NCBI GenBank assembly: GCA_028281605.1
Contig: JANQJO010000100.1
Span: 1 to 58,027 of the forward strand
Length of the DNA stretch: 58,027 nucleotides
From: Pseudomonadales bacterium
GTDB taxonomy: Bacteria > Pseudomonadota > Gammaproteobacteria > Pseudomonadales > JANQJO01
Direction of reading: 5' to 3'
Under the pieces are notes generated by a model that saw only the letters and a list, made by a program, of their open reading frames with translations, was not told the origin of the DNA and did not search any database. The translations under genes were made by a program, and so were the position numbers. Within the stretch, counting starts at the first letter, position 1; every line of letters starts with the position of its first letter. Of the stretch, positions 4,966 through 58,027 are shown piece by piece.

Positions 4966-4998
4966 AATAATTTTTGTTTGTATGAAGCGTCTCTCTAG

Positions 4999-5097
4999 GG
5001 AATGGTCACGAAATAACTTTAACATTTGGGGCGGATGTTTGTCTGAGCGAAGCGAGTTCAGCAGCGGAAAATGTTAAAGTTATTTCGTGACCATTCC
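4999..5097 (+). mobile_element. Family 1 MITE-like element, copy B (99 bp)
   Basis: Perfect 29-bp inverted arms GGAATGGTCACGAAATAACTTTAACATTT; core GCGGATGTTTGTCTGAGCGAAGCGAGTTCAGCAGCG; TAG direct repeat on both sides. Confidence 0.88.
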
Positions 5098-5232
5098 TAG
5101 TCGACTGTTTTATCTATTATTTTATTTTTCGAGCTGAACTGATGAAAAAAATGATGAGAACAAACACACAAGCCCAGAAAAAACATAAAAGTTAATAGCT
5201 GCTTTCTCAGAAATATAACCGCTGAAAGTTAA

Positions 5233-7614
5233 TTATTTTATATAAGTGATATAAATCGAATAGCGCACATCAGACACAGTACTACTGCCAAACTCACTAG
5301 GCATATTGTCGTCAGCCTGAGCATTCCACGTTACGTTCGCATCGGCTCGCCCTGGCGCACTCTCTGCAAAAGCAATACCTGGATTGATTTCATAAACCCA
5401 AGCTACCCATATAGGTGTCTCGGCAGCCACTTCCACCACATTTTCCAATTCAACCGTCTGCCATCCATCTTGATCACTAACAGCCGTCACAGCCGTTTTT
5501 GCCAACAACGCACCCGGCACACCACCATTGTCGGCGTACACTCCCAAAACAAAACTACCCGTACCAGCCTTATGGTACATAGTAATACTACTCACAGTCC
5601 CAGCCTCAGGCATGGTAAAAGGCATGGCACGCCTATCCGGTGCATTCGTAATACCTCCTAAAATGCTGGTTTCACCCAGATCAGCTGTATTGAGTTCATT
5701 CATCGCATTAACTTCAATGCTCATCGTTGCCATTGCATTGGCTTGTCCATCACTGACCTCCACTGTAAAAATATTCGTACCTAAATCTACTTCTAAGGGC
5801 GTGCCACTCAGTGCACCTTCAACCGCTACCGACAACCACTGCGGTCCAGCAACCTTGCTAAAGGTCAGAGGATCAGCATCAGCATCATTGGCATGAGCCG
5901 CTAAGCTAACACCACTGTAAGCTTCCCCAACAGTTGCAGCGTCCTGGACAATCGGGTCCATATCAAATACTGGAGGCATGTTATTATTGTTATCATTAAC
6001 ACCAGATCTATAACTGGCGTAAATTGAATAACGCAGATCTACTACTGTACTACCCCCAAAACTACTGGGCATATTATCACCTTGAGCATCCCAAACCACA
6101 TTCGCATCAGCTCGTCCTGGGCTGCCTTCAGCAAAAGCAATACCAGGATTAATCTCATAAATCCACGCCAACCATATCGGCATTTGCGCAACGACCTCCA
6201 CAGCACTTTCCAACTCAATGGTTTGCCAACCGGCAACATCACTAACTGCTGTCACAGGAGTTTTGCCTAACAAAGCACCTGGAAAACCTGCATCATCCGC
6301 ATATACAGCCAGCTGCATGTTACCATTGCCTGCCATATGATACATGGTCACACTTATTAATTGACCTGCTTTGGACGTCATAAACGGCATGGCTCGCCTG
6401 TCTGAAGCCACCGTCATATCTGGTAAGATATTAGTTTCACCCACTGCCTCTATATTATCAGGAACAGGATCAGGTACATTAACAGCAGGATTCACCAAAA
6501 TATTCAGCACAGCTGTTGCCATCGCCTGTCCATCACTGACCACAACCGTAAACGTATTAACACCGACATCAGCTACTAAGGGTGTGCCCGTTAAAGCTCC
6601 ATCATCTGCCACTGATAACCAGGCCGCCCCTGCCACTTTACTAAAAACCAAGGTATCTGCATCCGCATCACTGGCATCACCTTGCAAAGTCGCACTGTAA
6701 GGAAGGTCTTGGGTGGCAGCATCTTTGACAATCGGATCAACAACAAACACTGGTGCTGTATTATTATTTGCTTCATTGACTACAATAGTCAACATCGCTG
6801 TTGCTACAGCTTGACCATCACTAACCTCTATACTAAAAGTATTCAAGCCAAGATCTTCAACTGCAGGAATACCACTTAAAACACCATCAGATTCTATCAA
6901 TAACCAACTTGGACCAGCTACTTTGCTAAAAGTTAAATTATCATCATCTGCATCTATAACATCAGCTGCCAACGTAGCTGTATAAGCCAACCCCTGCGTC
7001 GCCTCAGGTTTAACAACAGGATTGGCTTTAAATTCGGGTGGATTGTTAATATCAACTGGAATATACTCTGCATAAATTGAGTAGCGCCATTTCGAAGTTG
7101 TACTATGACCAAAGTCATCGGGCATGTTATCAGCACCCTGCCGCCAAACTTCATTCACCGTAGCACGCCCAGGCAACCCTTCACCATAAACAATACCTGG
7201 ATTGTTATCATACACCCAAGCCAACCAGATTCGTGTTCCTGCAAAAACACTGGCTTTTGTTTGTAAGGCAGCTCTTTGCCAACCTGCAACACCACTGACG
7301 GCAATTGTATCGGTTTTCGCTAATAACTTACCCGGTAAGCCTTTTTTATCATTATAAACCGCCAAGATCATTCTACCGTTACCAGCAAGATGGTACATAC
7401 TAACATGTGTTATTTCACCATCTTCCGGCATAGAAAAAGGCATAGCACGACGACTGTCGCTAGCAATCGTATGCGGCATCACCTCAGTAACACCCACAGA
7501 TTTTGTCTCACTCGACACTTGTTCATGTTCAGCAATCGCAAAAGGTAAATAGAGACAGCAATATAATACAAATAAATTCAAGAGATAAAAGATATTTTTT
7601 ATGTAATAAGACAT
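5233..7614 (-). CDS. Secreted modular protein: three ~145-aa repeats interleaved with three cadherin/He_PIG-like Ig domains
   Basis: N-terminal signal-like segment. Repeated RRAMPF..MYH..G...GWQ..W.AW.Y..NPGI..RYSIY unit; repeated N..P.F....D.D.D.L.FSKVAG..WL.....G.L.G.P....G.N.F...VSDGQA unit. Confidence 0.75.
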   Translation of the reverse strand: MSYYIKNIFYLLNLFVLYCCLYLPFAIAEHEQVSSETKSVGVTEVMPHTIASDSRRAMPFSMPEDGEITHVSMYHLAGNGRMILAVYNDKKGLPGKLLAKTDTIAVSGVAGWQRAALQTKASVFAGTRIWLAWVYDNNPGIVYGEGLPGRATVNEVWRQGADNMPDDFGHSTTSKWRYSIYAEYIPVDINNPPEFKANPVVKPEATQGLAYTATLAADVIDADDDNLTFSKVAGPSWLLIESDGVLSGIPAVEDLGLNTFSIEVSDGQAVATAMLTIVVNEANNNTAPVFVVDPIVKDAATQDLPYSATLQGDASDADADTLVFSKVAGAAWLSVADDGALTGTPLVADVGVNTFTVVVSDGQAMATAVLNILVNPAVNVPDPVPDNIEAVGETNILPDMTVASDRRAMPFMTSKAGQLISVTMYHMAGNGNMQLAVYADDAGFPGALLGKTPVTAVSDVAGWQTIELESAVEVVAQMPIWLAWIYEINPGIAFAEGSPGRADANVVWDAQGDNMPSSFGGSTVVDLRYSIYASYRSGVNDNNNNMPPVFDMDPIVQDAATVGEAYSGVSLAAHANDADADPLTFSKVAGPQWLSVAVEGALSGTPLEVDLGTNIFTVEVSDGQANAMATMSIEVNAMNELNTADLGETSILGGITNAPDRRAMPFTMPEAGTVSSITMYHKAGTGSFVLGVYADNGGVPGALLAKTAVTAVSDQDGWQTVELENVVEVAAETPIWVAWVYEINPGIAFAESAPGRADANVTWNAQADDNMPSEFGSSTVSDVRYSIYITYIK

Positions 7615-14907: not shown

Positions 14908-14931
14908 TTATTATGTCCTCTTCAGCTTGGC

Positions 14932-14949
14932 TTATTTCGTGCTCGTTCC
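14932..14949 (-). repeat. Solo 18-bp family 1 terminal arm
   Basis: TTATTTCGTGCTCGTTCC followed by TTA; exact reverse complement of TAA-GGAACGAGCACGAAATAA at 20601-20621 and 35351-35371. Confidence 0.75.
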
Positions 14950-15238
14950 TTAATAACATTGGATAAGTATTCTACCACTAAAAAGCTACAAAACAGCACA
15001 TTTTTACGCTTTATTTGAGCAAACATTTCACCTTGCGTCTATTTATCTAAAGGCTCGTTAAGAAATAAACTCAGGTAGTGCTCTAGCACTTTAACTTATG
15101 GCCAAATAACATACTGATTACTTTAACATACCATACTAACATTCTGTTACATATCTACTATAGCTCCTAAATCTTTAATCATTTAGCCTTCTTATAATCT
15201 CATTAAAATGGTTTCAATTAAAAAGTGAAGGATGCAAA

Positions 15239-20175: not shown

Positions 20176-20263
20176 TCGTGTTTTCCTCCATAATAACATT
20201 TAAGAAAGAACAAAAAAACGTTCAAAACAGAACGTTCCATCAGTTGAAACTATTAAAATCATA

Positions 20264-20362
20264 GGAATGGTCACGAAATAACTTTAATATTTGGAGCGGA
20301 TGTTTGTCTGAGCGAAGCGAGTTCAGCAGCGGAAAATGTTAAAGTTATTTCGTGACCATTCC
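20264..20362 (+). mobile_element. Family 1 MITE-like element, copy C (99 bp)
   Basis: Nearly identical to copy B (2 differences seen); ATA direct repeat on both sides. Confidence 0.88.
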
Positions 20363-20539
20363 ATATTTGCTTAAAGCCTAGTGTTACGTTAAATAATATC
20401 ACTTATTTTTTATATACTCCATGATATTTTCTTCTCATTTTTGGTTGTGTCTAACACTTAGAATAAATTATTGGGATCAAAATTAATCAATTGTTATCTT
20501 ACAGAATCAAGCTGAAGGAAGATATTATTTTAAAAGAAA

Positions 20540-20600
20540 CAGCCATGAGCGATGCAATAAGCGTCACCCTAGGTGATGAAAATTGCATTTACACGGTAAG
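20540..20600 (+). mobile_element. Family 2 61-bp hairpin element, copy 1
   Basis: CAGCCATGAGCGATGCAATAAGCGTCACCCTAGGTGATGAAAATTGCATTTACACGGTAAG, preceded by GAAA. Matches the reverse complements of 35503-35563 and 57731-57791. Confidence 0.8.
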
Positions 20601-20603
20601 TAA

Positions 20604-20621
20604 GGAACGAGCACGAAATAA
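20604..20621 (+). repeat. Solo 18-bp family 1 terminal arm
   Basis: TAA-GGAACGAGCACGAAATAA, then similarity stops; directly after family 2 copy 1. Confidence 0.75.
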
Positions 20622-20643
20622 ATTCCTCATTCATTAAAATTAG

Positions 20644-21522
20644 CTATTCACTAAATATCGCCGTAAATTGCTTCTTAAGATTACGAAATAATGCTTTAAC
20701 GAAACTACAATCATCATCTTGATCAAAAGCAGCAATCATTTCTGCAACAGTTTGCGAACGCATTTCGGGAGTCAACTGTAGACAGTGCTTTAAAGCAAGC
20801 CATTGCTCACAATTTAGTGTTTCCAAACGCCTCAATGGTATATCACGAGCTAATGCATGGTCGGCTCTAATTTTAGCATAAGGATGCATCCCACATATCA
20901 TTTCATAAGCAATACAGCCTAAGCCAAAAACATCATCTTTTTGCATAACATAACGCCCCTTTAGTCTTTCCGGCGTGGCATACGAAGGCGTAATTGCACG
21001 TAAAGGATCCTGCTGATGAGGATCTTGTCGAGAACTGAGAATACGACTAACCCCAAAATCGATCAGCTTGAAATCACAATAAGGCGTCACAATTAAATTG
21101 CTAGGTTTAATATCACCATGAACTAACTGATTTTGGTGTAAATGTGTCAATATATTGGCCAATTCAACAATCCATCTTTGAGCCATTTTAAGAGGCAAAC
21201 CAACATTATGATGCTTCCTTAAAAGATCATTGAGTCTTTCTCCTTCAACATACTCTAATATAATCGCTTCCATAGCTTCAGTACTTAAATAATCGTAAGC
21301 TTTGACGATATAAGGGTGCTGTAAAGCAACAATATGACGGTATTCACTACGAAAAGACTCTACAATTGTTTGATTTGAAAGCAATTCTGGTGCCAGTTGC
21401 TTGACACACACCCATTCATTGGACACCAAGTCCATAGCTCGATAAATAAGACTCATCCCACCACGGGCCTCAATACGAATAACCTCATACCGATCTTTTA
21501 GAATAGTGTTTTCTAATAACAT
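20644..21522 (-). CDS. Hanks-type Ser/Thr protein kinase
   Basis: RGGMSLIY, VCVK, HGDIKPSN, DFG, TPSYATPE and DVFGLG motifs. Confidence 0.88.
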   Translation of the reverse strand: MLLENTILKDRYEVIRIEARGGMSLIYRAMDLVSNEWVCVKQLAPELLSNQTIVESFRSEYRHIVALQHPYIVKAYDYLSTEAMEAIILEYVEGERLNDLLRKHHNVGLPLKMAQRWIVELANILTHLHQNQLVHGDIKPSNLIVTPYCDFKLIDFGVSRILSSRQDPHQQDPLRAITPSYATPERLKGRYVMQKDDVFGLGCIAYEMICGMHPYAKIRADHALARDIPLRRLETLNCEQWLALKHCLQLTPEMRSQTVAEMIAAFDQDDDCSFVKALFRNLKKQFTAIFSE

Positions 21523-21672: not shown

Positions 21673-21711
21673 TATGAATCTGTAATTTTTTTATACTTTT
21701 ACTTTATCTTA

Positions 21712-21812
21712 GGTAAGGCACAGGAAATAATCTACCCATTGTTCTCTTCTGAACTCGCTGTGCTCAAACATGCATCCGCTCAAAATGGGTAGATTATTTC
21801 CTGTGCCTTACC
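21712..21812 (-). mobile_element. Family 1 MITE-like element, copy E (101 bp, alternative arms)
   Basis: Perfect arms GGTAAGGCACAGGAAATAATCTACCCATT / AATGGGTAGATTATTTCCTGTGCCTTACC around the same core; TTA direct repeat on both sides. Confidence 0.88.
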
Positions 21813-21900
21813 TTATATTTAAAAAATAAAACCAACCTGTCAGTAAGCCCTCAAAACTTCAGGACCCTGATAAATTTACCAGAACTATTAAACATTGTCT

Positions 21901-26219: not shown

Positions 26220-27605
26220 ATGCTTCAACCAAATACAATAAAAAAGCCGAGTGATAAAGTAGATTCGTACGCAGAAACGGAAGCACAACCGCGTCTTAGC
26301 AAAAAAAGAAAGCGCACTGATCCAGATTCAAAAAAAAAGCATACAGCAAGATTATCAACAACTAATAAAATAGAAAAAATGAGGGGACCGAACACTAAAA
26401 AAATAATATTGTCCGGCATCTGTCAAAAGCATCATCAGAAAATTGATCGTGTTTCTACTCCAGACCTCTTGAATAGGCATCAAACAGAAGGTTGGGGTAA
26501 ACATGAAAATAAATTGATAGGCCAAGGAAGACTAAACAGGGTATATTGTGAATGGGGAGAGGTGTTAATAAAATGCTCAAGTGAAATAAAACCAGAAAAG
26601 ACAGAAAAAGAATATCAAACGCAGTTATTCGATAAGATTATAAATCAACTGGCTTTACAACACCTTCATAATTGCTCAGAAGAAATTGATAGTAAAATTC
26701 ACAGATCATTCAAAAATCACGAAAACTATGAATTAATTGAATTTGTCTTACCAACAATTAAATTTCCCAAACCCTATGGTATCTTCAATAGCAATGGTTA
26801 TGGAGAAATCATTGCATGTGAAAGCTTAGAGCCTTCAGGGTCAGAAAAAGCGATGAATTTGATTGAAATGATTCAACTTAGCCCTGGTGGGCATATCGAA
26901 AATGACAAACAAATAGTTATTGCGTTTCAACTTTTGTTGTGTCTCTTTAAAATGAAATCGGCTGGAATAGTACATGGGGATATTAAATTAGAAAACATTA
27001 CTCTAAATATGGAAGATAATCACATTTGGCCTCTTGCAATGATTGATTTAGGCTATTGTAAAGCTTTTCAAAACCAAGAAGGCAGCAACTTTAAAAAAGT
27101 AATGGAATCTTACTGTGAAAATAAAGATTTAACCGATCACATAATTGAATCTTCCGGACTATTAGATTTTTTTCACAGTATCAATGGGACATCAAGGTAT
27201 ATAGCCCCAGAAACTTTAAGAAAATGCCAGAAGAAGAAATATAACACTGAAATAGATTTAAATAAATCAGATATTTGGTGTGTTGGAATAGTCCTTTATA
27301 TCTTGCAATTTAAGACCTTCCCATTTGAGAAACAAGCACAGTACCATACAGTTGAAATGAAACCTCTTCATAAAGATATTCTTGAAGAGTCCGAATATGG
27401 CAAACTTATTTTAAAAATGTTAAACCAATCGGAAACAGAAAGACCAGATGTAGTTGAGTTGATTAATGATCTTTTGAAGATCCCTGCCTTAAAATCAGCT
27501 ATCCCGTTTAAAGACAAGATTGGCAATCTGCTCGGAAATCAAACCCATCAAAAAAATCAAAACAGCTGTCACCAACAACAAAGCGCTCATATTAGTAAAG
27601 CGTGA
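26220..27605 (+). CDS. Eukaryote-like Ser/Thr kinase, putative effector
   Basis: GQGRLNRV, VLIK, HGDIKLEN, IDLG, GTSRYIAPE and DIWCVG motifs; basic N-terminal extension. Confidence 0.8.
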   Translation: MLQPNTIKKPSDKVDSYAETEAQPRLSKKRKRTDPDSKKKHTARLSTTNKIEKMRGPNTKKIILSGICQKHHQKIDRVSTPDLLNRHQTEGWGKHENKLIGQGRLNRVYCEWGEVLIKCSSEIKPEKTEKEYQTQLFDKIINQLALQHLHNCSEEIDSKIHRSFKNHENYELIEFVLPTIKFPKPYGIFNSNGYGEIIACESLEPSGSEKAMNLIEMIQLSPGGHIENDKQIVIAFQLLLCLFKMKSAGIVHGDIKLENITLNMEDNHIWPLAMIDLGYCKAFQNQEGSNFKKVMESYCENKDLTDHIIESSGLLDFFHSINGTSRYIAPETLRKCQKKKYNTEIDLNKSDIWCVGIVLYILQFKTFPFEKQAQYHTVEMKPLHKDILEESEYGKLILKMLNQSETERPDVVELINDLLKIPALKSAIPFKDKIGNLLGNQTHQKNQNSCHQQQSAHISKA

Positions 27606-34447: not shown

Positions 34448-35353
34448 ATGCTGGCTGACATGCTGCTGTTTTTATCAAACAATGCAGCAGCTTTTTACAC
34501 AGTAACCTTTATTTTTGGGCTGGTGGTAGGCAGTTTTCTCAATGTCGTCATTCACCGTATTCCTATCATGTTAGAACGTTCTTGGTATGAAAGCGCCAAA
34601 GCCTTTTTACTAGAAGAGAATGCCAACAACCAAATACAAGCAAGCAAATACGACAAACGAATCTTTAACTTACTTTATCCCAATTCATATTGCCCTCACT
34701 GCAAACAACCAGTCAAGGCTTGGCAAAACATTCCATTGATCAGCTACGGCCTATTACTAGGTAAATGCCAGCATTGCAAAACACCTATTTCTCTACGCTA
34801 CCCTCTAATTGAACTTATAGCTGCTCTACTCTGCCTGGCTATTACTTTACGCTTTGGTTTAACCCTCGAGTCTGCTTTAAGCTTAATGTTCACCTGGACT
34901 TTGTTATGTTTATCTGTGATTGATTACGATCACCATCTATTACCAGATCAATTGACCTTACCTTTACTCTGGGTGGGCTTATTGGCCAGTACACAATCTT
35001 TATTTACTACTCCCACAGATGCTATCTTAGGTGCCAGTTTGGGTTATCTAAGTTTATGGTCAGTCTATTGGATTTTCAAATTAATCACAGGAAAAGAAGG
35101 TATGGGATACGGAGATTTCAAATTACTTGCGGCACTAGGCGCATGGTGTGGCTGGCAAGCACTGCCCAGTATTATTGTCTGGTCTTCTTTAGTTGGCGCC
35201 ATCATTGGCATTGGCTTAGTTGTGTTATACAAACGTGACCGTAACAAACCTATTCCTTTTGGACCATATTTGGCTATAGCCGGTTGGCTATATTTTTATT
35301 TCGGGGACAATATCGATATTCAGCAGTGGATGCTGCTACCGGGCACATATTAA
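34448..35353 (+). CDS. pilD: Prepilin peptidase/N-methyltransferase
   Basis: GSFLNVVIHR, two CxxC pairs, GMGYGDFKL and PFGPYLA motifs. Confidence 0.96.
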   Translation: MLADMLLFLSNNAAAFYTVTFIFGLVVGSFLNVVIHRIPIMLERSWYESAKAFLLEENANNQIQASKYDKRIFNLLYPNSYCPHCKQPVKAWQNIPLISYGLLLGKCQHCKTPISLRYPLIELIAALLCLAITLRFGLTLESALSLMFTWTLLCLSVIDYDHHLLPDQLTLPLLWVGLLASTQSLFTTPTDAILGASLGYLSLWSVYWIFKLITGKEGMGYGDFKLLAALGAWCGWQALPSIIVWSSLVGAIIGIGLVVLYKRDRNKPIPFGPYLAIAGWLYFYFGDNIDIQQWMLLPGTY

Positions 35354-35452
35354 GGAACGAGCACGAAATAACTTTAGCATTTGTCGCTCCTGAACTCGCT
35401 TTGCTCAAACATGCATCTGCTCTAAATGTTAAAGTTATTTCGTACATGTTCC
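35354..35452 (-). mobile_element. Family 1 MITE-like element, copy F (99 bp)
   Basis: Same arm type and core as copy A; TAA direct repeat on both sides, the left one being the pilD stop codon. Confidence 0.88.
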
Positions 35453-35502
35453 TAAAATGTATATTCTTAATATGCATTGCCATCGGTGCTCACTAGCAGT
35501 AA

Positions 35503-35563
35503 TTTACCGTGCAAATGCAATTTTCATCACCTGGGGTGACGAAAATTACATCGCTCATGGCTG
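35503..35563 (-). mobile_element. Family 2 61-bp hairpin element, copy 2
   Basis: TTTACCGTGCAAATGCAATTTTCATCACCTGGGGTGACGAAAATTACATCGCTCATGGCTG followed by TTTC. Confidence 0.8.
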
Positions 35564-35935
35564 TTTCGATAGATAAGCGCATACCTAGCCTCTCTAAATA
35601 CATATTCTAAATGATACTTTGACGCCCAATGGAACGGAAAGTACCGGTAAGTGTATTATTTGACCACATAATAACAACAAATGTTCAATTGCTGTTATAG
35701 TATACTAAACCCTAAATAAACAAAAGTTAATATGTAATCTATTGATATTTAATAAGAGTTCCGAAAAATGACGATTAAAAGGAACAACCACCCTACCCTC
35801 TTTGAATGGCCGAAAACACGGTTATTATGTGCTGAATCGCCATTTTGTGAATCAAAGTGCTGCCAACTCATTAAGTGGCGTTGTTGATGGTGCGTAGATT
35901 AAATTCAAACCTGTTTAATTTATAACCTTTACATG

Positions 35936-35988: not shown

Positions 35989-36240
35989 ATGTCTAGACCT
36001 AGACAAAGTATTACTTTTACTGAACCTAATGACGAATGGCTTGCAGCACAAGTGGACAGCTTGGAGTACAGTAGTAAAAGTGATGTCGTCAATGATTTGA
36101 TACGACGTGCACGCCAACAAGAAGAAGAAAAGGAAATGATTCGAGCTAAACTTGTCCGCGCAGAACAAAGTGGTTTAAGCAGTAGAACACCAGAACAAAT
36201 CCGTCAAGAGGCAAAGTTACGGTTAAAACCGAATGCCTAA
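35989..36240 (+). CDS. ParD-like ribbon-helix-helix antitoxin
   Basis: MSRPRQSITFTEPNDEWL...EYSSKSDVVNDLIRRAR; overlaps the toxin start. Confidence 0.85.
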   Translation: MSRPRQSITFTEPNDEWLAAQVDSLEYSSKSDVVNDLIRRARQQEEEKEMIRAKLVRAEQSGLSSRTPEQIRQEAKLRLKPNA

Positions 36241-36526
36241 ATATAAACTGCACATCACTAAAGAAGCTGATCAAGACCTCGATCGTATCTACGAAGAAGG
36301 ATTCACAACATGGGGAGAGCAGCAGGCAGATAACTATTACGATGATCTCCTAGCCCACTTTGATATCCTGTGTGAAAATCCTTATCTATTTCGCGCAGTA
36401 GACGAGATCAGAAAAGGCTACCGGCGTAGTGTTTGTGGCAAACATTCGGTCTATTACCGTATCGTCAGTGATACTCTTGAAGTTATGGGACTCATTAAAT
36501 ATGAGAATCGGTACGGTAATGGTTAA
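36233..36526 (+). CDS. RelE/ParE family toxin
   Basis: EADQDLDRIY..G..TWGEQQAD.Y and IRKGYRRSVCGKHSVYYR motifs. Confidence 0.88.
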   Translation: MPKYKLHITKEADQDLDRIYEEGFTTWGEQQADNYYDDLLAHFDILCENPYLFRAVDEIRKGYRRSVCGKHSVYYRIVSDTLEVMGLIKYENRYGNG

Positions 36527-37948: not shown

Positions 37949-40900
37949 TCACAACTGTTCAGGACAATTAAACCCAGCCAGCTTATTCGTTTTAAACATT
38001 TCAAATGGATTGTGAACACTCAAAGCTGTTAAATACAGCTTAACGACACGTGCTTCAACCTGCAAATCCACACTAAACTGTTCGGCACTTTCACCTGGTC
38101 TGAAAGCTGCTTTCTGAAAAAAATGAAACAAAGCCCATGGCCCCTCTTTTACCTGCAAAGTAACAGACTTGTTATCAAGTAAATTCAACTTCAACACAAT
38201 ACCCAGCTCTGGCTTTTGTCCAGGCCAAGTCAATGAATACATTCTCGGCGCGCTGTGATCGTATTGAATCACTTGCCCCTCTATATTCATCCAAAGACTG
38301 CCTATATCTTTATCCATTTTTAAAGGCGTCAACCTAAAGCTCACACTGGCTTGCCCTTCATTAAAAGGAAAAAAAGCACGTCTAATCTCTTGCGCTTGTT
38401 GAAAAAATGCCAGGGCATTCTCAGATAAGTTAAGCCCATCTTTAGCAGCAGAGGCTTTATTACTCCAAGGATCAAAAGCTGTCTCCACATAGGAAATCAA
38501 ATATTCATTAAAAAAACTGTTAAGCATTCCTGAATAAGAAAAAAATTGATTAAAATCGTTAAGCTGCACATAGTTTTTACTGTTCTTTACAAAAGGATAG
38601 CGGCCCATTACTGTACCTTTACAAAACCGTAACGACTCTGCTTGCCACTGTGTATTAATCTGCGCAAGCCTGCCACTGTTAGCAATCGCTACTGTTCGTT
38701 CAGACAAGGAGTCTAATAACCCTTTGACAAAAGCCGGTGCCTCATCGCTTCCCAACTTTAATTGAGTCGCTAAATGCTCACCTTCTCTTACAATGGGTTC
38801 TGGAATGCTCGTACCCGCTCCCTTTTCAAGTAAAACTCTATCAAAATACTTTTGTAATTCTCCAAACGACCCTAACAACGTATCCAACTGTGCTGGCTGA
38901 TCTTGATCATTTTGAACAAAACTATCTAAGTCCATAAAGTTACGACTAACACCTTCATGAAATCTTTGTACAGGCTGAGTTGGATAATACTCATCAATTG
39001 TATCGTAACTTAATACACCTTCTGCCCACTTATCAAAACTGGTCAGTTGAGTTTCATTTCGTACAGCCTTTAAGAGTTTAAGCAAAGGAGAATTTTCTGT
39101 ATCAGAAACCAATGCCAACATCTCTTTAGCTTGCTGTGGATTAGTCACAGGTGCTAACACCGTATCTTCTAGTAAGCTTCTATAATTATTTACATACTCT
39201 TTGAAATAAAGCTTCTCAAGCTCAACAAAAGCTTGCTGATAAACAGATTCTTTTGAAAAAAGACTTGTATCATATAAAACCCACTGTCTCTCTTTCAATA
39301 GCTCACGCACCTGACCCGGAGCTTCTGAGAAAAAAAGACGATAGCCTTTCTTTTGTGAAAATAATGCGGAAATACCTTGTCTTAAACTCGCACCACTTTG
39401 TCTCACAAACACTTTGGTCGCATCCAACTCTCCTGCCACTGAATAAACTGAAAACTCAGGTACACTCATATGCTTTAACTGGTGTTCTAAGTTTTTCTTA
39501 ACATGCCCATAAAGCCATTGTTCATCAGTCTCATCATTCAGCAAACCCGTACGTATTTGTTCAATTAAAGTATCGTTTATATGTACAATAGGCCGACGAG
39601 CACTATAAGCAACACTCAAACGTTTTAAATCTTGTTCAGACATAAGCTGGCTTACACGGCTAGAGTTCTGAAAAAAATTCAATATGAAATTTGCATCGTA
39701 ATACTGATTTAAACCAAGCATTAAATAAGCCTTTAAAGCTTCATAACGTGCCTGTACGGTTATTTGTTCATCTTGTAAATGATCTTCTAAATACCGCTTT
39801 ACCTGGGGAAGTTTAAAATAAAACAACAAGTTTTCATAAAAATACTGTACTGCATCAGCAAGCTTATTGTATTGAGCAGGGTGCCAAGCACGAGCAAGAC
39901 CGTTACCTGCTTGCGTTGCTTCAAGGTCAGTCAACTGAAGGTTTACTGATCGCAGCCAAGCAACAACATCCTGCTCTGAACTGTTTGATTTTTCTGAAAA
40001 ATGCAACCATTCAGATTTAGAACTTTCGACCCATCGATCAAATTGCTCAATACGCTCTACCTGAGAAAGATAATGCCATATCCACACACACACACTCAAA
40101 CAAGAGATACTCAAAAATACAGCACAAGCACCATAACGCAACCGATGCCTATGGCGCTCGAGCCTAGGGTTTACTCCCACTAACCCCGCTTCTTTAAAAA
40201 TGACTTTTTTATATAAGTCATGTATAAAATAGCTTTTGTTAAATGCCTCCAGTGAAGTACATTTCGTTTGAGCAAACTCAGAACGTACAGGGGCCTGTTC
40301 GATGAACCGATCAAAAGATGTAGCTTCTTGAGTCGAGCTAATAAAATAAACACCTCTTAAAGATAATTCAGTCGCATCTTTCACACCCTTCTCATTAACC
40401 TCATTAACAAAAATATCTCGTAAAAAGCGATTCAGCTTGACTTTATGCACAGCCAATTGCTGTGGAAAACCGAAAATCTTACTTCGTTTTTTTTCATCAG
40501 GCTCATCATGTAAACGTGTACAAGTGCATTGATTTAAACGCTCAATGAGTAAATCAAACTCTCTGCTAAAAGCCTGTACGGCTAACTCTGTCTCTTGCTC
40601 TTTACCAGCCTGATTAAACGTTACACCCCACACCTGTTGTCTTTGCTCAGCACTTAAATTCTCAAAAAATTCGACGAAACCAAACAGCAAATCCAATTTA
40701 GTGACTAATACATACACGGGCAAATGCGTACCAAAGGAGTATCTAAGTTCTTGCATACGCTGCTTAATTTCATAGGCCTGCTTTAAACGTTCAGCCTGCG
40801 ACACATTGACTATATCCATAATATTAACAGTCAGCACCACACCATTAATGGGACGTCGACGCCTATGTTTACGTAACAACTTTATCAAATACAACCATTC

Positions 40901-41485
40901 TTTTTTATCTGTTTGTTGATCACGATCTTGTAAAACATAACGCCCAGCCGTATCAATCAAAACCCCACCTTGAGCAAACCACCAATCGCAGTAAAGCGTG
41001 CTGTCCACGGCTTCCGATACCGCCGTGCTGCAACGTCTCTCAAGTGGAAACTCAAGACCACTATTCATTAAAGCCGTAGTTTTACCAGAGCCAGTTCGAC
41101 CAATCACAAGGTACCAGGGTACATCATAAAGGCTTTTGTTTTTAAACAGGCTAGGTTTCAAAGCACGAATACCTGCTTCAAAGTGAGAGGTCATGGTTTT
41201 AATCCCTGGACTGTGTGCATCCCCTCTCAAAAACGCTTGCAACCATTGTAATAGATGACGCCCACCAGCAAGCTCACTAAGCCTACGCCAAAAATTTGGT
41301 AAAAATAATGAAAGACCAACAATCAAAACCAGCACCGCTCGTGCGACGAAAGATTTTAGCGGTTCATACTCACCAAAAGAAAAGTAAGGGCCTGCCAGCA
41401 AAATAAATAACGCTAACAACAAAAAGCCCAGTGTTTTAAAAAACCAGGGATTAATAAAAATAGCCAGTGTTTTTTTTAACATCAC
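37949..41485 (-). CDS. tssM: Type VI secretion membrane subunit TssM/IcmF
   Basis: N-terminal TMs; PWYLVIG.TGSGKTT, CDWWF, DTAGRY, PINGV, TKLDLL.GF, RGVYF and GPWALF motifs. Confidence 0.9.
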   Translation of the reverse strand: MMLKKTLAIFINPWFFKTLGFLLLALFILLAGPYFSFGEYEPLKSFVARAVLVLIVGLSLFLPNFWRRLSELAGGRHLLQWLQAFLRGDAHSPGIKTMTSHFEAGIRALKPSLFKNKSLYDVPWYLVIGRTGSGKTTALMNSGLEFPLERRCSTAVSEAVDSTLYCDWWFAQGGVLIDTAGRYVLQDRDQQTDKKEWLYLIKLLRKHRRRRPINGVVLTVNIMDIVNVSQAERLKQAYEIKQRMQELRYSFGTHLPVYVLVTKLDLLFGFVEFFENLSAEQRQQVWGVTFNQAGKEQETELAVQAFSREFDLLIERLNQCTCTRLHDEPDEKKRSKIFGFPQQLAVHKVKLNRFLRDIFVNEVNEKGVKDATELSLRGVYFISSTQEATSFDRFIEQAPVRSEFAQTKCTSLEAFNKSYFIHDLYKKVIFKEAGLVGVNPRLERHRHRLRYGACAVFLSISCLSVCVWIWHYLSQVERIEQFDRWVESSKSEWLHFSEKSNSSEQDVVAWLRSVNLQLTDLEATQAGNGLARAWHPAQYNKLADAVQYFYENLLFYFKLPQVKRYLEDHLQDEQITVQARYEALKAYLMLGLNQYYDANFILNFFQNSSRVSQLMSEQDLKRLSVAYSARRPIVHINDTLIEQIRTGLLNDETDEQWLYGHVKKNLEHQLKHMSVPEFSVYSVAGELDATKVFVRQSGASLRQGISALFSQKKGYRLFFSEAPGQVRELLKERQWVLYDTSLFSKESVYQQAFVELEKLYFKEYVNNYRSLLEDTVLAPVTNPQQAKEMLALVSDTENSPLLKLLKAVRNETQLTSFDKWAEGVLSYDTIDEYYPTQPVQRFHEGVSRNFMDLDSFVQNDQDQPAQLDTLLGSFGELQKYFDRVLLEKGAGTSIPEPIVREGEHLATQLKLGSDEAPAFVKGLLDSLSERTVAIANSGRLAQINTQWQAESLRFCKGTVMGRYPFVKNSKNYVQLNDFNQFFSYSGMLNSFFNEYLISYVETAFDPWSNKASAAKDGLNLSENALAFFQQAQEIRRAFFPFNEGQASVSFRLTPLKMDKDIGSLWMNIEGQVIQYDHSAPRMYSLTWPGQKPELGIVLKLNLLDNKSVTLQVKEGPWALFHFFQKAAFRPGESAEQFSVDLQVEARVVKLYLTALSVHNPFEMFKTNKLAGFNCPEQL

Positions 41486-47142: not shown

Positions 47143-47187
47143 CTTTTACGTAAGTACTAAAACAACCCTCATAACCCAATAAACCTA

Positions 47188-47286
47188 GGAACGTACACGA
47201 AATAACTTTAACATTTGTCACTCCTGAACTCGCTTTGCTCAAACACGCATCCGCTCTAAGCGTTAAAGTTATTTCATGCACGCTCC
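47188..47286 (-). mobile_element. Family 1 MITE-like element, copy G (99 bp)
   Basis: Copy A-type arms and core; CTA direct repeat on both sides. Confidence 0.87.
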
Positions 47287-47499
47287 CTACCCTAAACTTT
47301 CACTATATTTCTATAATGCTGAAAAACCGACCTATACATCAAAATATAACTTTACAAAAAATAATCAAGAACTGTAAAATAAACTTAATAAACCATTATC
47401 AAGCAGTAACAGTGTCTCATGAGTTAAATATATTGTTCTAATATGCCTATACAAAGGGTATAACAGTATCCATAAAACAAAATCAAAGAAAAAATAAAC

Positions 47500-50400
47500 A
47501 TGGATAACCCCAGACTTATTATCAATCAGACTCGAACAAACCCACGACAGGGTTCAGATGAAGCCTTACCCCCCAGCACGACTGTTCTCGCAAAAGTAAG
47601 CTCCGACCCTATAAAACCAATAAAAAGAGCATACCATACATTTTGCTCACATATGAGAGGACCAAAATCATGGATCAAAACCTTCAAAAATGCTCACCAA
47701 CGCCTACGATACACAACTGAAACGCGCGTTCTCAGAGCCGTATTAAAAAACAAAAAAAATCACCAAAATTTTGCTATCTCCAACTTCTTAACCAACAAAC
47801 CAGAACTAACAAATATACACCCAAAATATCTATCAAAACTACTTACATACGCCATAAAAAACAATGATGCAAACATTGCTTCTCTTATAATAACCAAGAC
47901 TGAACTGAAATTGCCACAAACTGCTAATGACCTCATCAGTTTATTAAACTTACTGGCCACGCACAAAAAAATACAAGCCATACAAGCTACTTTGAATAAA
48001 AGTGATTTGTCACATTTATTAGAACTAAATCTCCTAGACAGCATCACTCGTGATACAATATACGAATTAAAACTAGAAAAGTCATCAACAACAGCCTTAG
48101 AAGAAATTGTAAAAACAAGTTCAAATGATCACGAAAAAAAAATCGCAAGTAAAATTCTTGCATTCAGAGGCATAGCATCAAAACAAAGTTTTAGCTCAGT
48201 TAAGGATCATATAGAAGCTTTCCTTAACACTGAAGACACCACATTCAACACTAAAGACATACAAACTAAAAAGACCCTATTAATCTCTGCAATAGAAGAA
48301 ACAAATCCAGAAGCACTAAAGTATTTATTAAATAGGGGAGCAGACTTATTTACTCAAGATTTCGAAAATAAAAACGCTTTATTTTACATTGAGAAAAAAA
48401 AACAGCTACTCGCATCAAAAGAAATTAGAGAAACTTTAACAGCAATATTAGAAGAAAAAATAAAAACAATATATGAAACACCAAACCAACGAATAGGCTG
48501 CCTAATAGACCACCTAAAAAACCTAAATAAATTATGTGAAATTTGCTTTGTATCTGCTTTAAAGCATCAAGATACTAGAAATCTACAATATTTATTAAAC
48601 ATTATTACTTCAAAACAAGAAATTTTCAGCAAAGAAACTGGTTTAAAAATTTTAACCCACACCTACCGAACCCAAAATATCAATATTATCAACCTGGTAC
48701 AGGAAAAAAGGCTTAATTTTATACTTAACTTAGAAAACATAAAAGGGACTTCCCTCAAAATTAAAAGTTTACCCGACCTCGACATATTAGATCTTTTAAA
48801 AATAACTGGATTAATAGAAGCTAGCCGAATACCCGACACAGATCAAATGGAATTCTTTTTAGCAGAACCATATAATAATCAAAACCACACAGCTATCATA
48901 CAAGTTAAAATAGCGCTATTAACCGATGTGTGCACACGTGGCGATAACAGACTATTAAGAATATTTATCAAACAATCCAATTTTATTTTTAACTCAGATA
49001 CAGTAAAAGCAGCTTACAAAGAAATTAAAAGGCACATATCATCCAACCCCGACTTCACCAACCTTACTAGCATAACACAATGCTGTGATCAACTTATCCA
49101 AGCTGGATTAAAGCAATCGATTATGGAAGGCAATATAGAAAACACAAGATTTTTTATAGAAAAAAAAACCGATCATAAAGTCAGTCTATCTAGAAAATTT
49201 CAATACCAACTTTTAATACTAGCAATCAACAGTAAAAACAATGCTACAGTAGAAACTTTACTAGCAAGCCCTCTTCGCCACATCAGAGATAAAGAAATAT
49301 TACAGAAAGCTAGCCAAAAAAACACCACTAAAGAGATAAAAGAGACAATCGGTGTGTTTAGTACGGACTCTTTCAACGACTTGCGAACAGCAATTAAAGA
49401 GAATAACACAATTAAATTTCATAATCTTTATACTCTATTCATCAATAACACACCAAAAAGGACTGCAATAGCTACAGCACTACTACACACAGCCTTAGCC
49501 TACAAAGTTGATGACGATATCATCATGGAACTTATCAAATATGGTGTCAATGCAAATTGGTATTGTTATAACAAAACACCTTTGATAATGGCCATTGAAC
49601 AGGGGAAATGGAAAGTCATGAATCAATTACTTGCCAAAGGAGCTGATGCCTCTCTTCGCGACAAAAAATATGATTATACTCCTTTATATTACATTTTAGA
49701 CTTAGATGAAATCGACACTACAAAGGCTTTCACCTCTTTTCTAAAACACAGCCCAACAACATTACACGACAATTTGACACTAGAGGTAGAAATTACACTC
49801 TACAATTACCTTCTGGGCAATAAAAACATAACTCAACGAGAAGAAAAAATAGCGGCTTTACTAAAAATTCCGCACGTTCAATTGAGTTCTACACAAAATG
49901 CTCATGACCCTATCACTGCCATATCGTACTCTAAAATCAAAACAAAATTAGATCAATACACTCAATCTAACACCCCAACAAACACCAGTAACATCCTTAA
50001 AGAAACGTGGAATCTTATATTTGAAGAAAAAATACCTGAAAGTATAATGGAATCAAATTCTTTTGAAACAAGCGTTGTTGAACTTGAACAAGCTCTTAAT
50101 AAAAAAACGCCAAAGACGGGAAATATAGAACAACTGAAAAGTTTTTTCACTGTCATGTTCTACTATCACACAAGCCCACACGCATCGAAAAAGGCCATAC
50201 AATTCATTGAGCAAACATGGCGAATGATTCAATGCATTGAAACAGACCCAGAAATTCTACAGCACTTATTTTTACATGAAAATAATCATTCAATGAATAA
50301 AGAATTACTAAAAGAAACATGTATTGAAAGTTTTATCAAATCCATAAGCAGCATACATATACATTATGATGCATATAACAAAAAAACATTCCAAATTTAT

Positions 50401-50850
50401 TGCATAGACGGCCAAATAGGCAGAATTTGTTCAACCTTTACAGGCATTTTCAAGGGCTTTGAGCTAAACAGCCTAGAGCTGTTAAATAACAGCATTCTAA
50501 ACCTCATCCATCAAAAAGCAGAAGAATATTTTCAAAATCATAAAGATCAGAAACAACTCTTAGAGCATTTAGAAAAACAGAAAAATCAGGCAACAACACA
50601 AACTGATAAAGATAAGTTAGAAAATATCAATAAACAGCTACAAGGCTTAAATCAAAAGCTTTTTAAATACATTGAAGCTGCCATTATAGAACAATACTCA
50701 AACGATCAAACTCAATCTGAAAGCCCTGACAATAAATTGATAAGGCTCTGCGTTAATGCACTCATCGGCAAACATCTTTCTGAAAATGGCTACTTTATAT
50801 ATAACGAAGAAGAAACAGACATATTATTGACAGATAATATATCCCTATAG
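47500..50850 (+). CDS. Large ankyrin-repeat protein, putative effector
   Basis: Ankyrin motifs (KTLLISAIEE..LLNRGAD; KTPLIMAIEQG..LLAKGAD; YTPLYY); very A-rich; no signal peptide. Confidence 0.8.
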   Translation: MDNPRLIINQTRTNPRQGSDEALPPSTTVLAKVSSDPIKPIKRAYHTFCSHMRGPKSWIKTFKNAHQRLRYTTETRVLRAVLKNKKNHQNFAISNFLTNKPELTNIHPKYLSKLLTYAIKNNDANIASLIITKTELKLPQTANDLISLLNLLATHKKIQAIQATLNKSDLSHLLELNLLDSITRDTIYELKLEKSSTTALEEIVKTSSNDHEKKIASKILAFRGIASKQSFSSVKDHIEAFLNTEDTTFNTKDIQTKKTLLISAIEETNPEALKYLLNRGADLFTQDFENKNALFYIEKKKQLLASKEIRETLTAILEEKIKTIYETPNQRIGCLIDHLKNLNKLCEICFVSALKHQDTRNLQYLLNIITSKQEIFSKETGLKILTHTYRTQNINIINLVQEKRLNFILNLENIKGTSLKIKSLPDLDILDLLKITGLIEASRIPDTDQMEFFLAEPYNNQNHTAIIQVKIALLTDVCTRGDNRLLRIFIKQSNFIFNSDTVKAAYKEIKRHISSNPDFTNLTSITQCCDQLIQAGLKQSIMEGNIENTRFFIEKKTDHKVSLSRKFQYQLLILAINSKNNATVETLLASPLRHIRDKEILQKASQKNTTKEIKETIGVFSTDSFNDLRTAIKENNTIKFHNLYTLFINNTPKRTAIATALLHTALAYKVDDDIIMELIKYGVNANWYCYNKTPLIMAIEQGKWKVMNQLLAKGADASLRDKKYDYTPLYYILDLDEIDTTKAFTSFLKHSPTTLHDNLTLEVEITLYNYLLGNKNITQREEKIAALLKIPHVQLSSTQNAHDPITAISYSKIKTKLDQYTQSNTPTNTSNILKETWNLIFEEKIPESIMESNSFETSVVELEQALNKKTPKTGNIEQLKSFFTVMFYYHTSPHASKKAIQFIEQTWRMIQCIETDPEILQHLFLHENNHSMNKELLKETCIESFIKSISSIHIHYDAYNKKTFQIYCIDGQIGRICSTFTGIFKGFELNSLELLNNSILNLIHQKAEEYFQNHKDQKQLLEHLEKQKNQATTQTDKDKLENINKQLQGLNQKLFKYIEAAIIEQYSNDQTQSESPDNKLIRLCVNALIGKHLSENGYFIYNEEETDILLTDNISL

Positions 50851-57606: not shown

Positions 57607-57645
57607 ATGCCCTAACTGCTCTCTTATTTGTGTACTTTAAAATAA

Positions 57646-57807
57646 GGTAAGGCACAGGAAGTAATCTACCCATTGTTCGCTTCTAAACTCGCTGTGCCCA
57701 AACATGCATCCGCTCAAAATGGGTAGATTATTTACCGTGCAAATGCAATTTTCATCACCTGGGGTGACGCTTATTACATCGCTCATGGCTGTTTCCTGTG
57801 CCTTACC
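57646..57807 (-). mobile_element. Family 1 MITE-like element, copy H (E-type arms), interrupted by a family 2 element
   Basis: 162 bp = 101 bp (as copy E) + 61-bp insertion in the right arm; TAA direct repeat on both sides. Confidence 0.88.
57731..57791 (-). mobile_element. Family 2 61-bp hairpin element, copy 3 (nested)
   Basis: Inserted between GGGTAGATTA and TTTCCTGTGCC of copy H; the empty site is visible in copy E. Confidence 0.85.
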
Positions 57808-57932
57808 TAAAATGGAGTCTCTATACCCAACCTTTCATTTTACAATATAATCATAATCAAGCACGGCACTGATACAGTTTTTGGTGAAGCATTTCATTTT
57901 CACCCAATACACCGATATTGCTCAGTCCCTTA

Positions 57933-58027
57933 GGAGGTGTCCCAGAATAAAGTTTACAATGTGAGCGGATGCATGTCTGAGCGCAGCGAGTTCAGGAGCG
58001 AAGCTTGTAAACTTTATTCTGGGACAC
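57933..58027 (+). mobile_element. Family 1 MITE-like element, copy I (fourth arm type; cut by window end)
   Basis: Arms GTGTCCCAGAATAAAGTTTACAA / TTGTAAACTTTATTCTGGGACAC around core GAGCGGATGCATGTCTGAGCGCAGCGAGTTCAGGAGCGA; TTA on the left. Confidence 0.85.

Follow-up and report, generated by a model that had tools for sequence, protein, structure and literature searches.

The window analysed here is a single contig of 58,027 nt with a G+C content of 39%, and its gene content is gammaproteobacterial, including LpoA/YraN/SIS/BON, Tol-Pal, PilBCD, YhdP and RNase G. No other protein in the collection searched exceeds 63% identity to this RNase G, the best named matches being from Marinobacter at ~61%, and the host appears to have no close sequenced relative. 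An ankyrin-repeat protein of 1116 aa (47500-50850) and two eukaryote-like Ser/Thr kinases (20644-21522 and 26220-27605) are also encoded, and an orphan IcmF/TssM-like gene (37949-41485) adjoins Tol-Pal. This gene content suggests that the organism may be a host-associated, deeply branching gammaproteobacterium. A cyanobacterial origin, an early idea prompted by the appearance of the repeats, was rejected on the gammaproteobacterial genes, and a Legionella-like host, to which the G+C content, ankyrin protein, kinases and IcmF-like gene might point, is not supported by the RNase G identities. The + strand is strongly skewed in composition (A 33.1%, T 27.9%, C 22.6%, G 16.4%), and by our own count the long ORFs lie mostly on the - strand. 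Intergenic DNA amounts to 5,942 nt, or 10.2% of the contig.

Eight full copies of a hairpin repeat, here called family 1, occur in these 58 kb (1455-1556, 4996-5099, 20262-20365, 21708-21818, 35351-35454, 47185-47289, 57638-57808 and 57929-58027). The centre of ~41 nt is conserved, and the arms of ~30 nt fall into three sequence types (copies A/B/C/F/G, copies E/H and copy I); both arms of each copy have changed together, with the hairpin kept. Most copies have TA, TTA, TAA or ATA on both sides, and at their starts (GGAAxG...GAAATAA) the arms are similar to the GGAAGGTGCGAATAAG ends of IS5 in E. coli K-12. Together, these flanks and IS5-like arm starts suggest that family 1 is a putative IS5-family MITE. 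The contig stops inside the copy at 57929-58027, as if assembly had broken off at a high-copy repeat. An arm-like fragment at 14931-14957 is very weak and not significant (nhmmer E = 0.46-0.58), and a search of family 1 against plasmids gave no match.

A first-pass annotation of this DNA had placed a 61-mer at three sites, each followed by TTTC, and both points were borne out: the contig holds exactly three copies, and TTTC comes directly after every one of them (3/3) in the flank alignment. Copy 1 (57731-57791, + strand) lies in the right arm of family-1 copy H (57638-57808), copy 2 (35503-35563, + strand) lies 49 nt past the right arm of copy F (35351-35454), and copy 3 (20540-20600, - strand), in reverse orientation, adjoins a solo family-1 arm, with full copy C 175 nt away. 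The solo arm (20601-20631; repeat family D6) is 27/31 identical to the left arm of F and scores E = 0.004-0.014 with nhmmer. All copies of the 61-mer are intergenic, and they are single and isolated, spaced 14.9 and 22.2 kb apart with no inverted doublets. When up to three mismatches were allowed, a 38-nt core matched three times in the contig (57732-57769 +, 35504-35541 +, 20562-20599 -) and in none of 100 dinucleotide-preserving shuffles. Blastn on the contig at word size 7 recovered the same three full-length copies. The other matches were at most 21 nt long, bar one of 37 nt in copy 2 that is the hairpin matching its own opposite arm; the query had family-1 flanks, and the 13-21-nt matches in family-1 arms stem from those flanks.

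Pairwise comparison of the copies gives 3, 4 and 7 differences over 61 positions (88.5-95.1% identity). When the three are aligned with 30-nt flanks, likeness breaks off abruptly on both sides and the flanks are unrelated, and thus the copies are not pieces of a longer common repeat. Ragged boundaries, which the same annotation had named as a sign of such a repeat, were looked for in this alignment, and the ends are sharp instead. The 61-mer is well supported as a discrete, recently spread mobile mini-insertion with a fixed flanking word.

The clearest view of an insertion comes from family-1 copies H and E (21708-21818), the latter being the uninterrupted sister of the former. Their alignment contains one gap of 61 columns, with 4 mismatches in the ~103-nt hairpin body by hand count, which confirms the earlier statement that H equals E plus exactly 61 bp. 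The insert splits the right arm of H inside the conserved TTATTTC (GAAATAA) box, and the target before insertion, as preserved in E, reads GATTATTT|CCTG. All seven full family-1 copies other than H are free of the insert, and E folds into a perfect long hairpin (z = -12.8). Thus, the empty state is the normal one and H gained 61 bp. Describing the two as filled and empty alleles, as was done at first, is incorrect, since E and H are paralogous repeat copies and not alleles of one site.

Relative to E, TTT stands at both junctions of the insert in H, and the junction of copy 1 is therefore ambiguous over these bases, with the unit perhaps being 57734-57791 plus a TTT repeat. Three readings of unit length result. 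A unit of 58 bp with a TTT repeat fits two of the three copies (copy 3 has CTT on the left), one of 59 bp with a TT repeat fits all three, and the last is 61 bp with no repeat. The initial description had offered the first and the last; its TTT form does fit 2/3 copies, but the 59-bp form, which fits 3/3, was missed. Across the copies, TT lies on both sides of the unit in 3/3 and TTT in 2/3, and these bases may be either a duplication or part of the unit.

With the unit written as ACCG...GTTT, the insertion sites read TTATTT|C, TAATTT|C and TTACTT|C, which share the word T-W-A-Y-T-T | C. On one strand GAAA precedes the unit, and on the other TWAYTT precedes it, in all three cases; the C on the far (3') side of the insertion is likewise conserved at 3/3 sites. 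Five of the nearest ten flank columns are identical across the sites, and only 166 of 200,000 random intergenic triplets were as alike (p ~8e-4, a value that comes from three sites only). Both TTATTT and C are already present in the empty copy E and belong to the target, not to the element. Thus, the element selects where it inserts by sequence. On the two strands of the contig, TWAYTTC is found 77 times, compared with ~58 expected from base composition, and 14 of the 77 occurrences lie inside family-1 sequence, where the word corresponds to the GAAATAA/TTATTTC box conserved in the arms.

The unit is an imperfect palindrome almost from end to end, with 20 predicted pairs that reach to within 3 nt of each end. 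Its extreme ends differ (ACCGTG versus CAGCCATG, the latter as reverse complement), and pairing starts offset by 1 and 3 nt. The first-pass wording that the hairpin lacks matching termini is accurate for the very ends, but is too strong given how far the pairing extends. The unit contains a single central hairpin, not one per end, which lies 9-15 nt from each end and leaves short, non-palindromic tails.

One strand of the 61-mer, which reads GAAACAGCC, folds better than the other and is clearly more stable. With RNA parameters, z for copies 1, 2 and 3 is -3.4, -6.0 and -4.6 on this strand and -0.06, -3.0 and -3.1 on the other; with DNA parameters, the values are -0.5, -3.9 and -2.7 compared with +0.2, -2.2 and -2.4. 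The difference between strands arises because four G.T/G.U pairs form on the GAAACAGCC strand. Copy 1 has the weakest fold, and as DNA it folds no better than shuffled sequence (z = +0.2 and -0.5). Across the three-copy alignment, compensatory changes were found at 0 of the 20 pairs, and there is one one-sided change.

Copy 2 differs from copy 1 solely in a three-base block, AAA (35542-35544) in place of CTT (57770-57772). The AAA complements the opposite arm exactly and turns an internal loop into a continuous 17-pair stem. Templated correction is a mechanism by which quasi-palindromes get corrected, and judging by its sequence the AAA block looks like the product of such an event.

The 61-mer is free of stop codons in three of six frames in all copies (20536-20604, 35499-35567 and 57727-57795). 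An ATG-led frame (MSD...) on the GAAACAGCC strand is present in all three copies and was considered as a micro-protein; it was rejected, as every in-frame difference changes a residue and two word searches found nothing similar. Two ORFs that run through copy 1 (65 aa on the - strand and 61 aa on the + strand) have no words in common with predicted proteins of 33-114 aa.

Searches for an enzyme that could move the unit returned no transposase of any kind among the 42 ORFs of the contig (E <=1e-5) or among 76 further intergenic frames and unassigned ORFs (E <=0.1), and in the same sets no Y1, RAYT, IS91, DEDD or serine recombinase (0/42 and 0/76). The contig is only 58 kb long, and so this absence says little either way. 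A scan of GTDB species-representative genomes with one exact 21-base stretch of the hairpin core gave a single match, whose flanks share nothing with those of the 61-mer, and we read it as a probable chance match. Among plasmids there was none at E <=0.01, with one 24-nt partial match at E = 0.5, and among phages there was one 32-nt partial match at E = 0.05, both partial matches being at chance level. That the 61-mer was not found elsewhere can be attributed to a host that is without a close sequenced relative.

We tentatively favour the reading that the 61-mer is a very small non-autonomous element that may be moved in trans, as a single strand, by an HUH/Y1 enzyme, and that is linked to family 1 mainly through its target word. 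The element would consist of 58-61 bp with one imperfect hairpin and short non-palindromic tails, and would have inserted recently at three sites with the common word T-W-A-Y-T-T | C. An IS200/IS605-type transposase encoded elsewhere in the genome would mobilise it as one DNA strand, with GAAA|CAGCC...GGTAAA, the better folder, as the putative active strand. It could represent a bacterial equivalent of the 52-bp 'terminal-only' PATEs (palindrome-associated transposable elements, derived from IS200/IS605-type elements) of Haloquadratum, whose two ends, left and right, are joined around one palindrome, or alternatively the scar of such an IS, left behind after deletion of its core. The link to family 1 would then come mainly from the target word in the GAAATAA/TTATTTC box of the arms and not from dependence on family 1.

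Mobility in trans, a single-strand intermediate and the enzyme family are all things we infer, and we regard the HUH single-strand mechanism as a reasonable preference that follows from weighing several features. Duplex DNA has a persistence length of ~150 bp, and 58-61 bp lies far below it. Thus, a duplex circle or the synapsis of duplex ends is disfavoured at this size and a single-strand circle is not. Additionally, the 61-mer is without a true terminal inverted repeat and has a short word fixed by one end and a hairpin near its ends, and these are features of the IS200/IS605 family (PMC7290912, PMC3119063). Its better fold on one strand is a further point in favour, and its flanks are compatible with the IS200/IS605 or IS91 behaviour named in the first-pass annotation. 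However, IS200/IS605 elements are described as needing a hairpin at each end and as making no target duplication (PMC7290912). The 61-mer has one central hairpin where two subterminal ones would each bind a TnpA monomer, and its junction TT/TTT might be a target duplication. The conserved C 3' of the insertion is also not predicted by a rule of insertion 3' of a tetranucleotide. The DNA fold of copy 1, no better than that of shuffled sequence, and the lack of compensatory changes in the stem count against this reading as well.

The closest resemblance is to elements of Haloquadratum, whose IS605-type elements and PATEs are reported to shrink by deletion between two near-terminal palindromes into 52-bp terminal-only forms that retain a single palindrome, one such form accounting for six strain-specific insertions (PMC3119063). 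Like the 52-bp terminal-only forms of HqIRS46 and ISHwa23 in Haloquadratum walsbyi, the 61-mer is ~50-60 bp long and far too short to code, has no terminal inverted repeats, one palindrome with short tails and a fixed word by one end, and exists in copies of similar identity (>90% in the PATEs) with filled and empty sites (PMC3119063). Unlike the 61-mer, terminal-only PATEs come from archaea whose genomes also contain the full-length IS605-type elements from which they derive (PMC3119063). The junction TT/TTT of the 61-mer might also be a duplication, and the likeness drawn here is one of features. SMR-A, also from Haloquadratum, is similarly a transposase-free small repeat that inserts into other non-autonomous elements, within palindromes, but it is ~110 bp long with prominent inverted terminal repeats (PMC3119063).

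Other known small repeats share less with the 61-mer. REPs and REPINs, which are associated with RAYT, are likewise short extragenic hairpins (21-65 bp) thought to be moved by HUH/Y1 enzymes on single strands (PMC3116915; size from PMC3184786). According to the account in PMC3116915, REPs are typically G+C-rich, number in the hundreds of copies, have an inverted doublet as the replicative unit and flank a RAYT gene. The 61-mer, in contrast, occurs as three single copies without inverted hairpin doublets, has an A+T-rich stem and has no RAYT in the contig. The small dispersed repeats (SDRs) of Nostoc punctiforme, which Elhai et al. reportedly described in 2008, are said to be 21-27 nt long, nested in mini-transposons and in their own copies, with a conserved hairpin and a proposed RNA intermediate. 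Unlike these cyanobacterial SDRs, the 61-mer is 58-61 nt long and gammaproteobacterial, a comparison made by description only.

We class the 61-mer with the sub-100-bp, transposase-free nested repeats, an already known kind. On present evidence, which amounts to three copies in a single contig that yielded no enzyme, the 61-mer is a modest curiosity restricted to its lineage. Confirmation genome-wide would make it a bacterial addition to the few sub-100-bp transposase-free repeats that nest in non-autonomous elements, a group so far made up of the small dispersed repeats of Nostoc and, in haloarchaea, the SMRs and terminal-only PATEs. A clean filled/empty pair would then also be at hand for studying the minimum length of mobile DNA and the enzyme responsible for moving it.

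The same features could instead belong to an ordinary DDE-type MITE, namely a 58-bp (or 59-bp) imperfect palindrome that moves by cut-and-paste, prefers T-rich sites and duplicates TTT (or TT) of the target. The near-complete self-complementarity of the unit, with its 20 predicted pairs extending to within 3 nt of the ends, is consistent with such an element, as are the TT on both sides of 3/3 copies and the TTT of 2/3. That both flanks of the insertion point are conserved (TWAY-TT-C) also suits a duplex target. However, the terminal bases disagree and the first pairs are offset by 1 and 3 nt, and the contig is without a transposase (0/42 and 0/76). An invariant duplicated sequence is atypical of most DDE families, and a duplex of 58 bp is very short for the synapsis of two ends. 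We consider this explanation unlikely, though worth keeping in mind.

The first-pass annotation had called the 61-mer a very small hyperparasite of family 1, and a true hyperparasite, or a host 'weapon' against family 1, would be expected to recognize and disable family-1 arms, an effect already proposed for SMR-A repeats, which strike PATE palindromes in Haloquadratum. Copy 1 does interrupt an arm, splitting its most conserved box, and by our own reading the orientation relative to the nearest arm is identical in all three copies. There is also precedent, in that 104 of 192 nested insertions in Haloquadratum are of SMR-A in a PATE or IS605-type element (PMC3119063). The proximity comparison with random intergenic placement that was proposed at the outset has been run on the contig: 3/3 copies lie within 50 nt of family-1 sequence, as do 25% of intergenic positions, giving p ~0.016 with a distance threshold set after seeing the data.

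Against this, only one of the three copies lies inside a family-1 element, another being beside a solo arm and the third 49 nt off, so that two are outside any family-1 hairpin. Only 1/8 full family-1 copies, or 1/16 arms, carries the insert, compared with 9/19 and 12/23 copies of one PATE struck by SMR-A (PMC3119063). Family-1 sequence makes up 15% of intergenic DNA, and thus family-1 neighbours are easily come by. Family-1 arms carry the target word TWAYTTC, and this by itself could account for the association. Specificity of the 61-mer for family 1 is weakly supported, and we think it distinctly unlikely that the element is a hyperparasite or a weapon.

A bolder form of the single-strand HUH/Y1 reading joins it to such an effect on family 1. 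The unit of ~60 nt with its single hairpin might be a complete single-strand transposition substrate, one hairpin serving both ends, that preferentially knocks out the terminal repeat of an IS5-like MITE. We give this combination little credence. If it were true, the 61-mer would be among the smallest mobile DNAs in bacteria, and it would act on an IS5-like MITE either as a parasite's own parasite or as a brake favoured by the host.

Improbable as well is a miniature or scar of a site-specific IS, either IS110/IS1111 or a serine-recombinase IS607, which would use TT as a crossover core and choose its target by bridge RNA pairing or core match, often in repeats. TT is found at both junctions in 3/3 copies, which fits an IS110-type core and does not tell a core from a duplication. 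The 61-mer has no terminal inverted repeats, and the likeness among targets is asymmetric, amounting to 4/7 positions left of the core and to TC on its right. The known IS110-type intermediate is a circle of double-stranded DNA, and 61 bp is too short for one to be physically plausible; the elements themselves are 1.2-1.5 kb in size. For an RNA-guided choice the three target sites also share little identity, the contig has no DEDD or serine recombinase, and only 1/3 copies is inside a repeat.

Published accounts of these elements cut both ways. IS110 is described as having no inverted repeats and a short recombination core, as often targeting repeats such as REPs, and as needing only a 22-bp donor when the bridge RNA is supplied in trans (PMC11208160); IS elements that target REPs are reviewed in PMC3184786. 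Like IS110/IS1111, the 61-mer thus combines an absence of inverted terminal repeats with a short core at both junctions and insertion into a repeat (PMC11208160, PMC3184786). However, IS110/IS1111 elements encode a DEDD recombinase and a bridge RNA within the element and move via a double-stranded circle (PMC11208160, PMC3184786), and a 61-bp unit cannot encode either and would hardly circularize as a duplex.

Several more specific identities for the 61-mer were tried and set aside. It is not a known RNA family, as Rfam gave 0 matches at gathering score over the window, and not tRNA-derived, as the window is without a tRNA. A terminator module was ruled out, none of the copies having a terminator-like site. 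Copies 1 and 2, which form direct repeats with a spacing of 22,228 nt, were considered as attL/attR of an island, and this was rejected, the interval holding Tol-Pal, YhdP and RNase G and no integrase.

A non-mobile functional module, such as an RNA hairpin, a protein-binding site or a regulatory signal, or alternatively a unit spread via an RNA intermediate like the Nostoc small dispersed repeats, would suit the strongly strand-asymmetric RNA fold (z = -3.4 to -6.0), the intergenic position of every copy and a weak promoter-like site (9/12; 57727-57755, - strand) that covers the left junction of copy 1 and faces the RNase G gene, but we hold it very unlikely, given that one such promoter-like match is what chance would give (1 found versus 0.8 expected), that Rfam models around copy 1 at E <=10 were only chance-level miRNA models (E = 0.15-6) with none at gathering score, that no copy has a terminator-like site, that the well-folding strand runs along the downstream gene in 1/3 copies and antisense to both neighbours in 2/3, and that a place inside the arm of another repeat still requires an insertion event.

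Two further features of the contig lie apart from these questions. Approximately 425 nt downstream of copy 2 of the 61-mer is a pair of genes for a ParD-like antitoxin (E = 1e-4) and a ParE toxin (35989-36526). Additionally, a 235-nt direct repeat with 72% identity (5312-5546 and 6077-6311) and a weaker third unit (7163-7243) lies inside the gene of a 793-aa Ig-domain (He_PIG/Big_9) protein and represents ordinary domain repetition.
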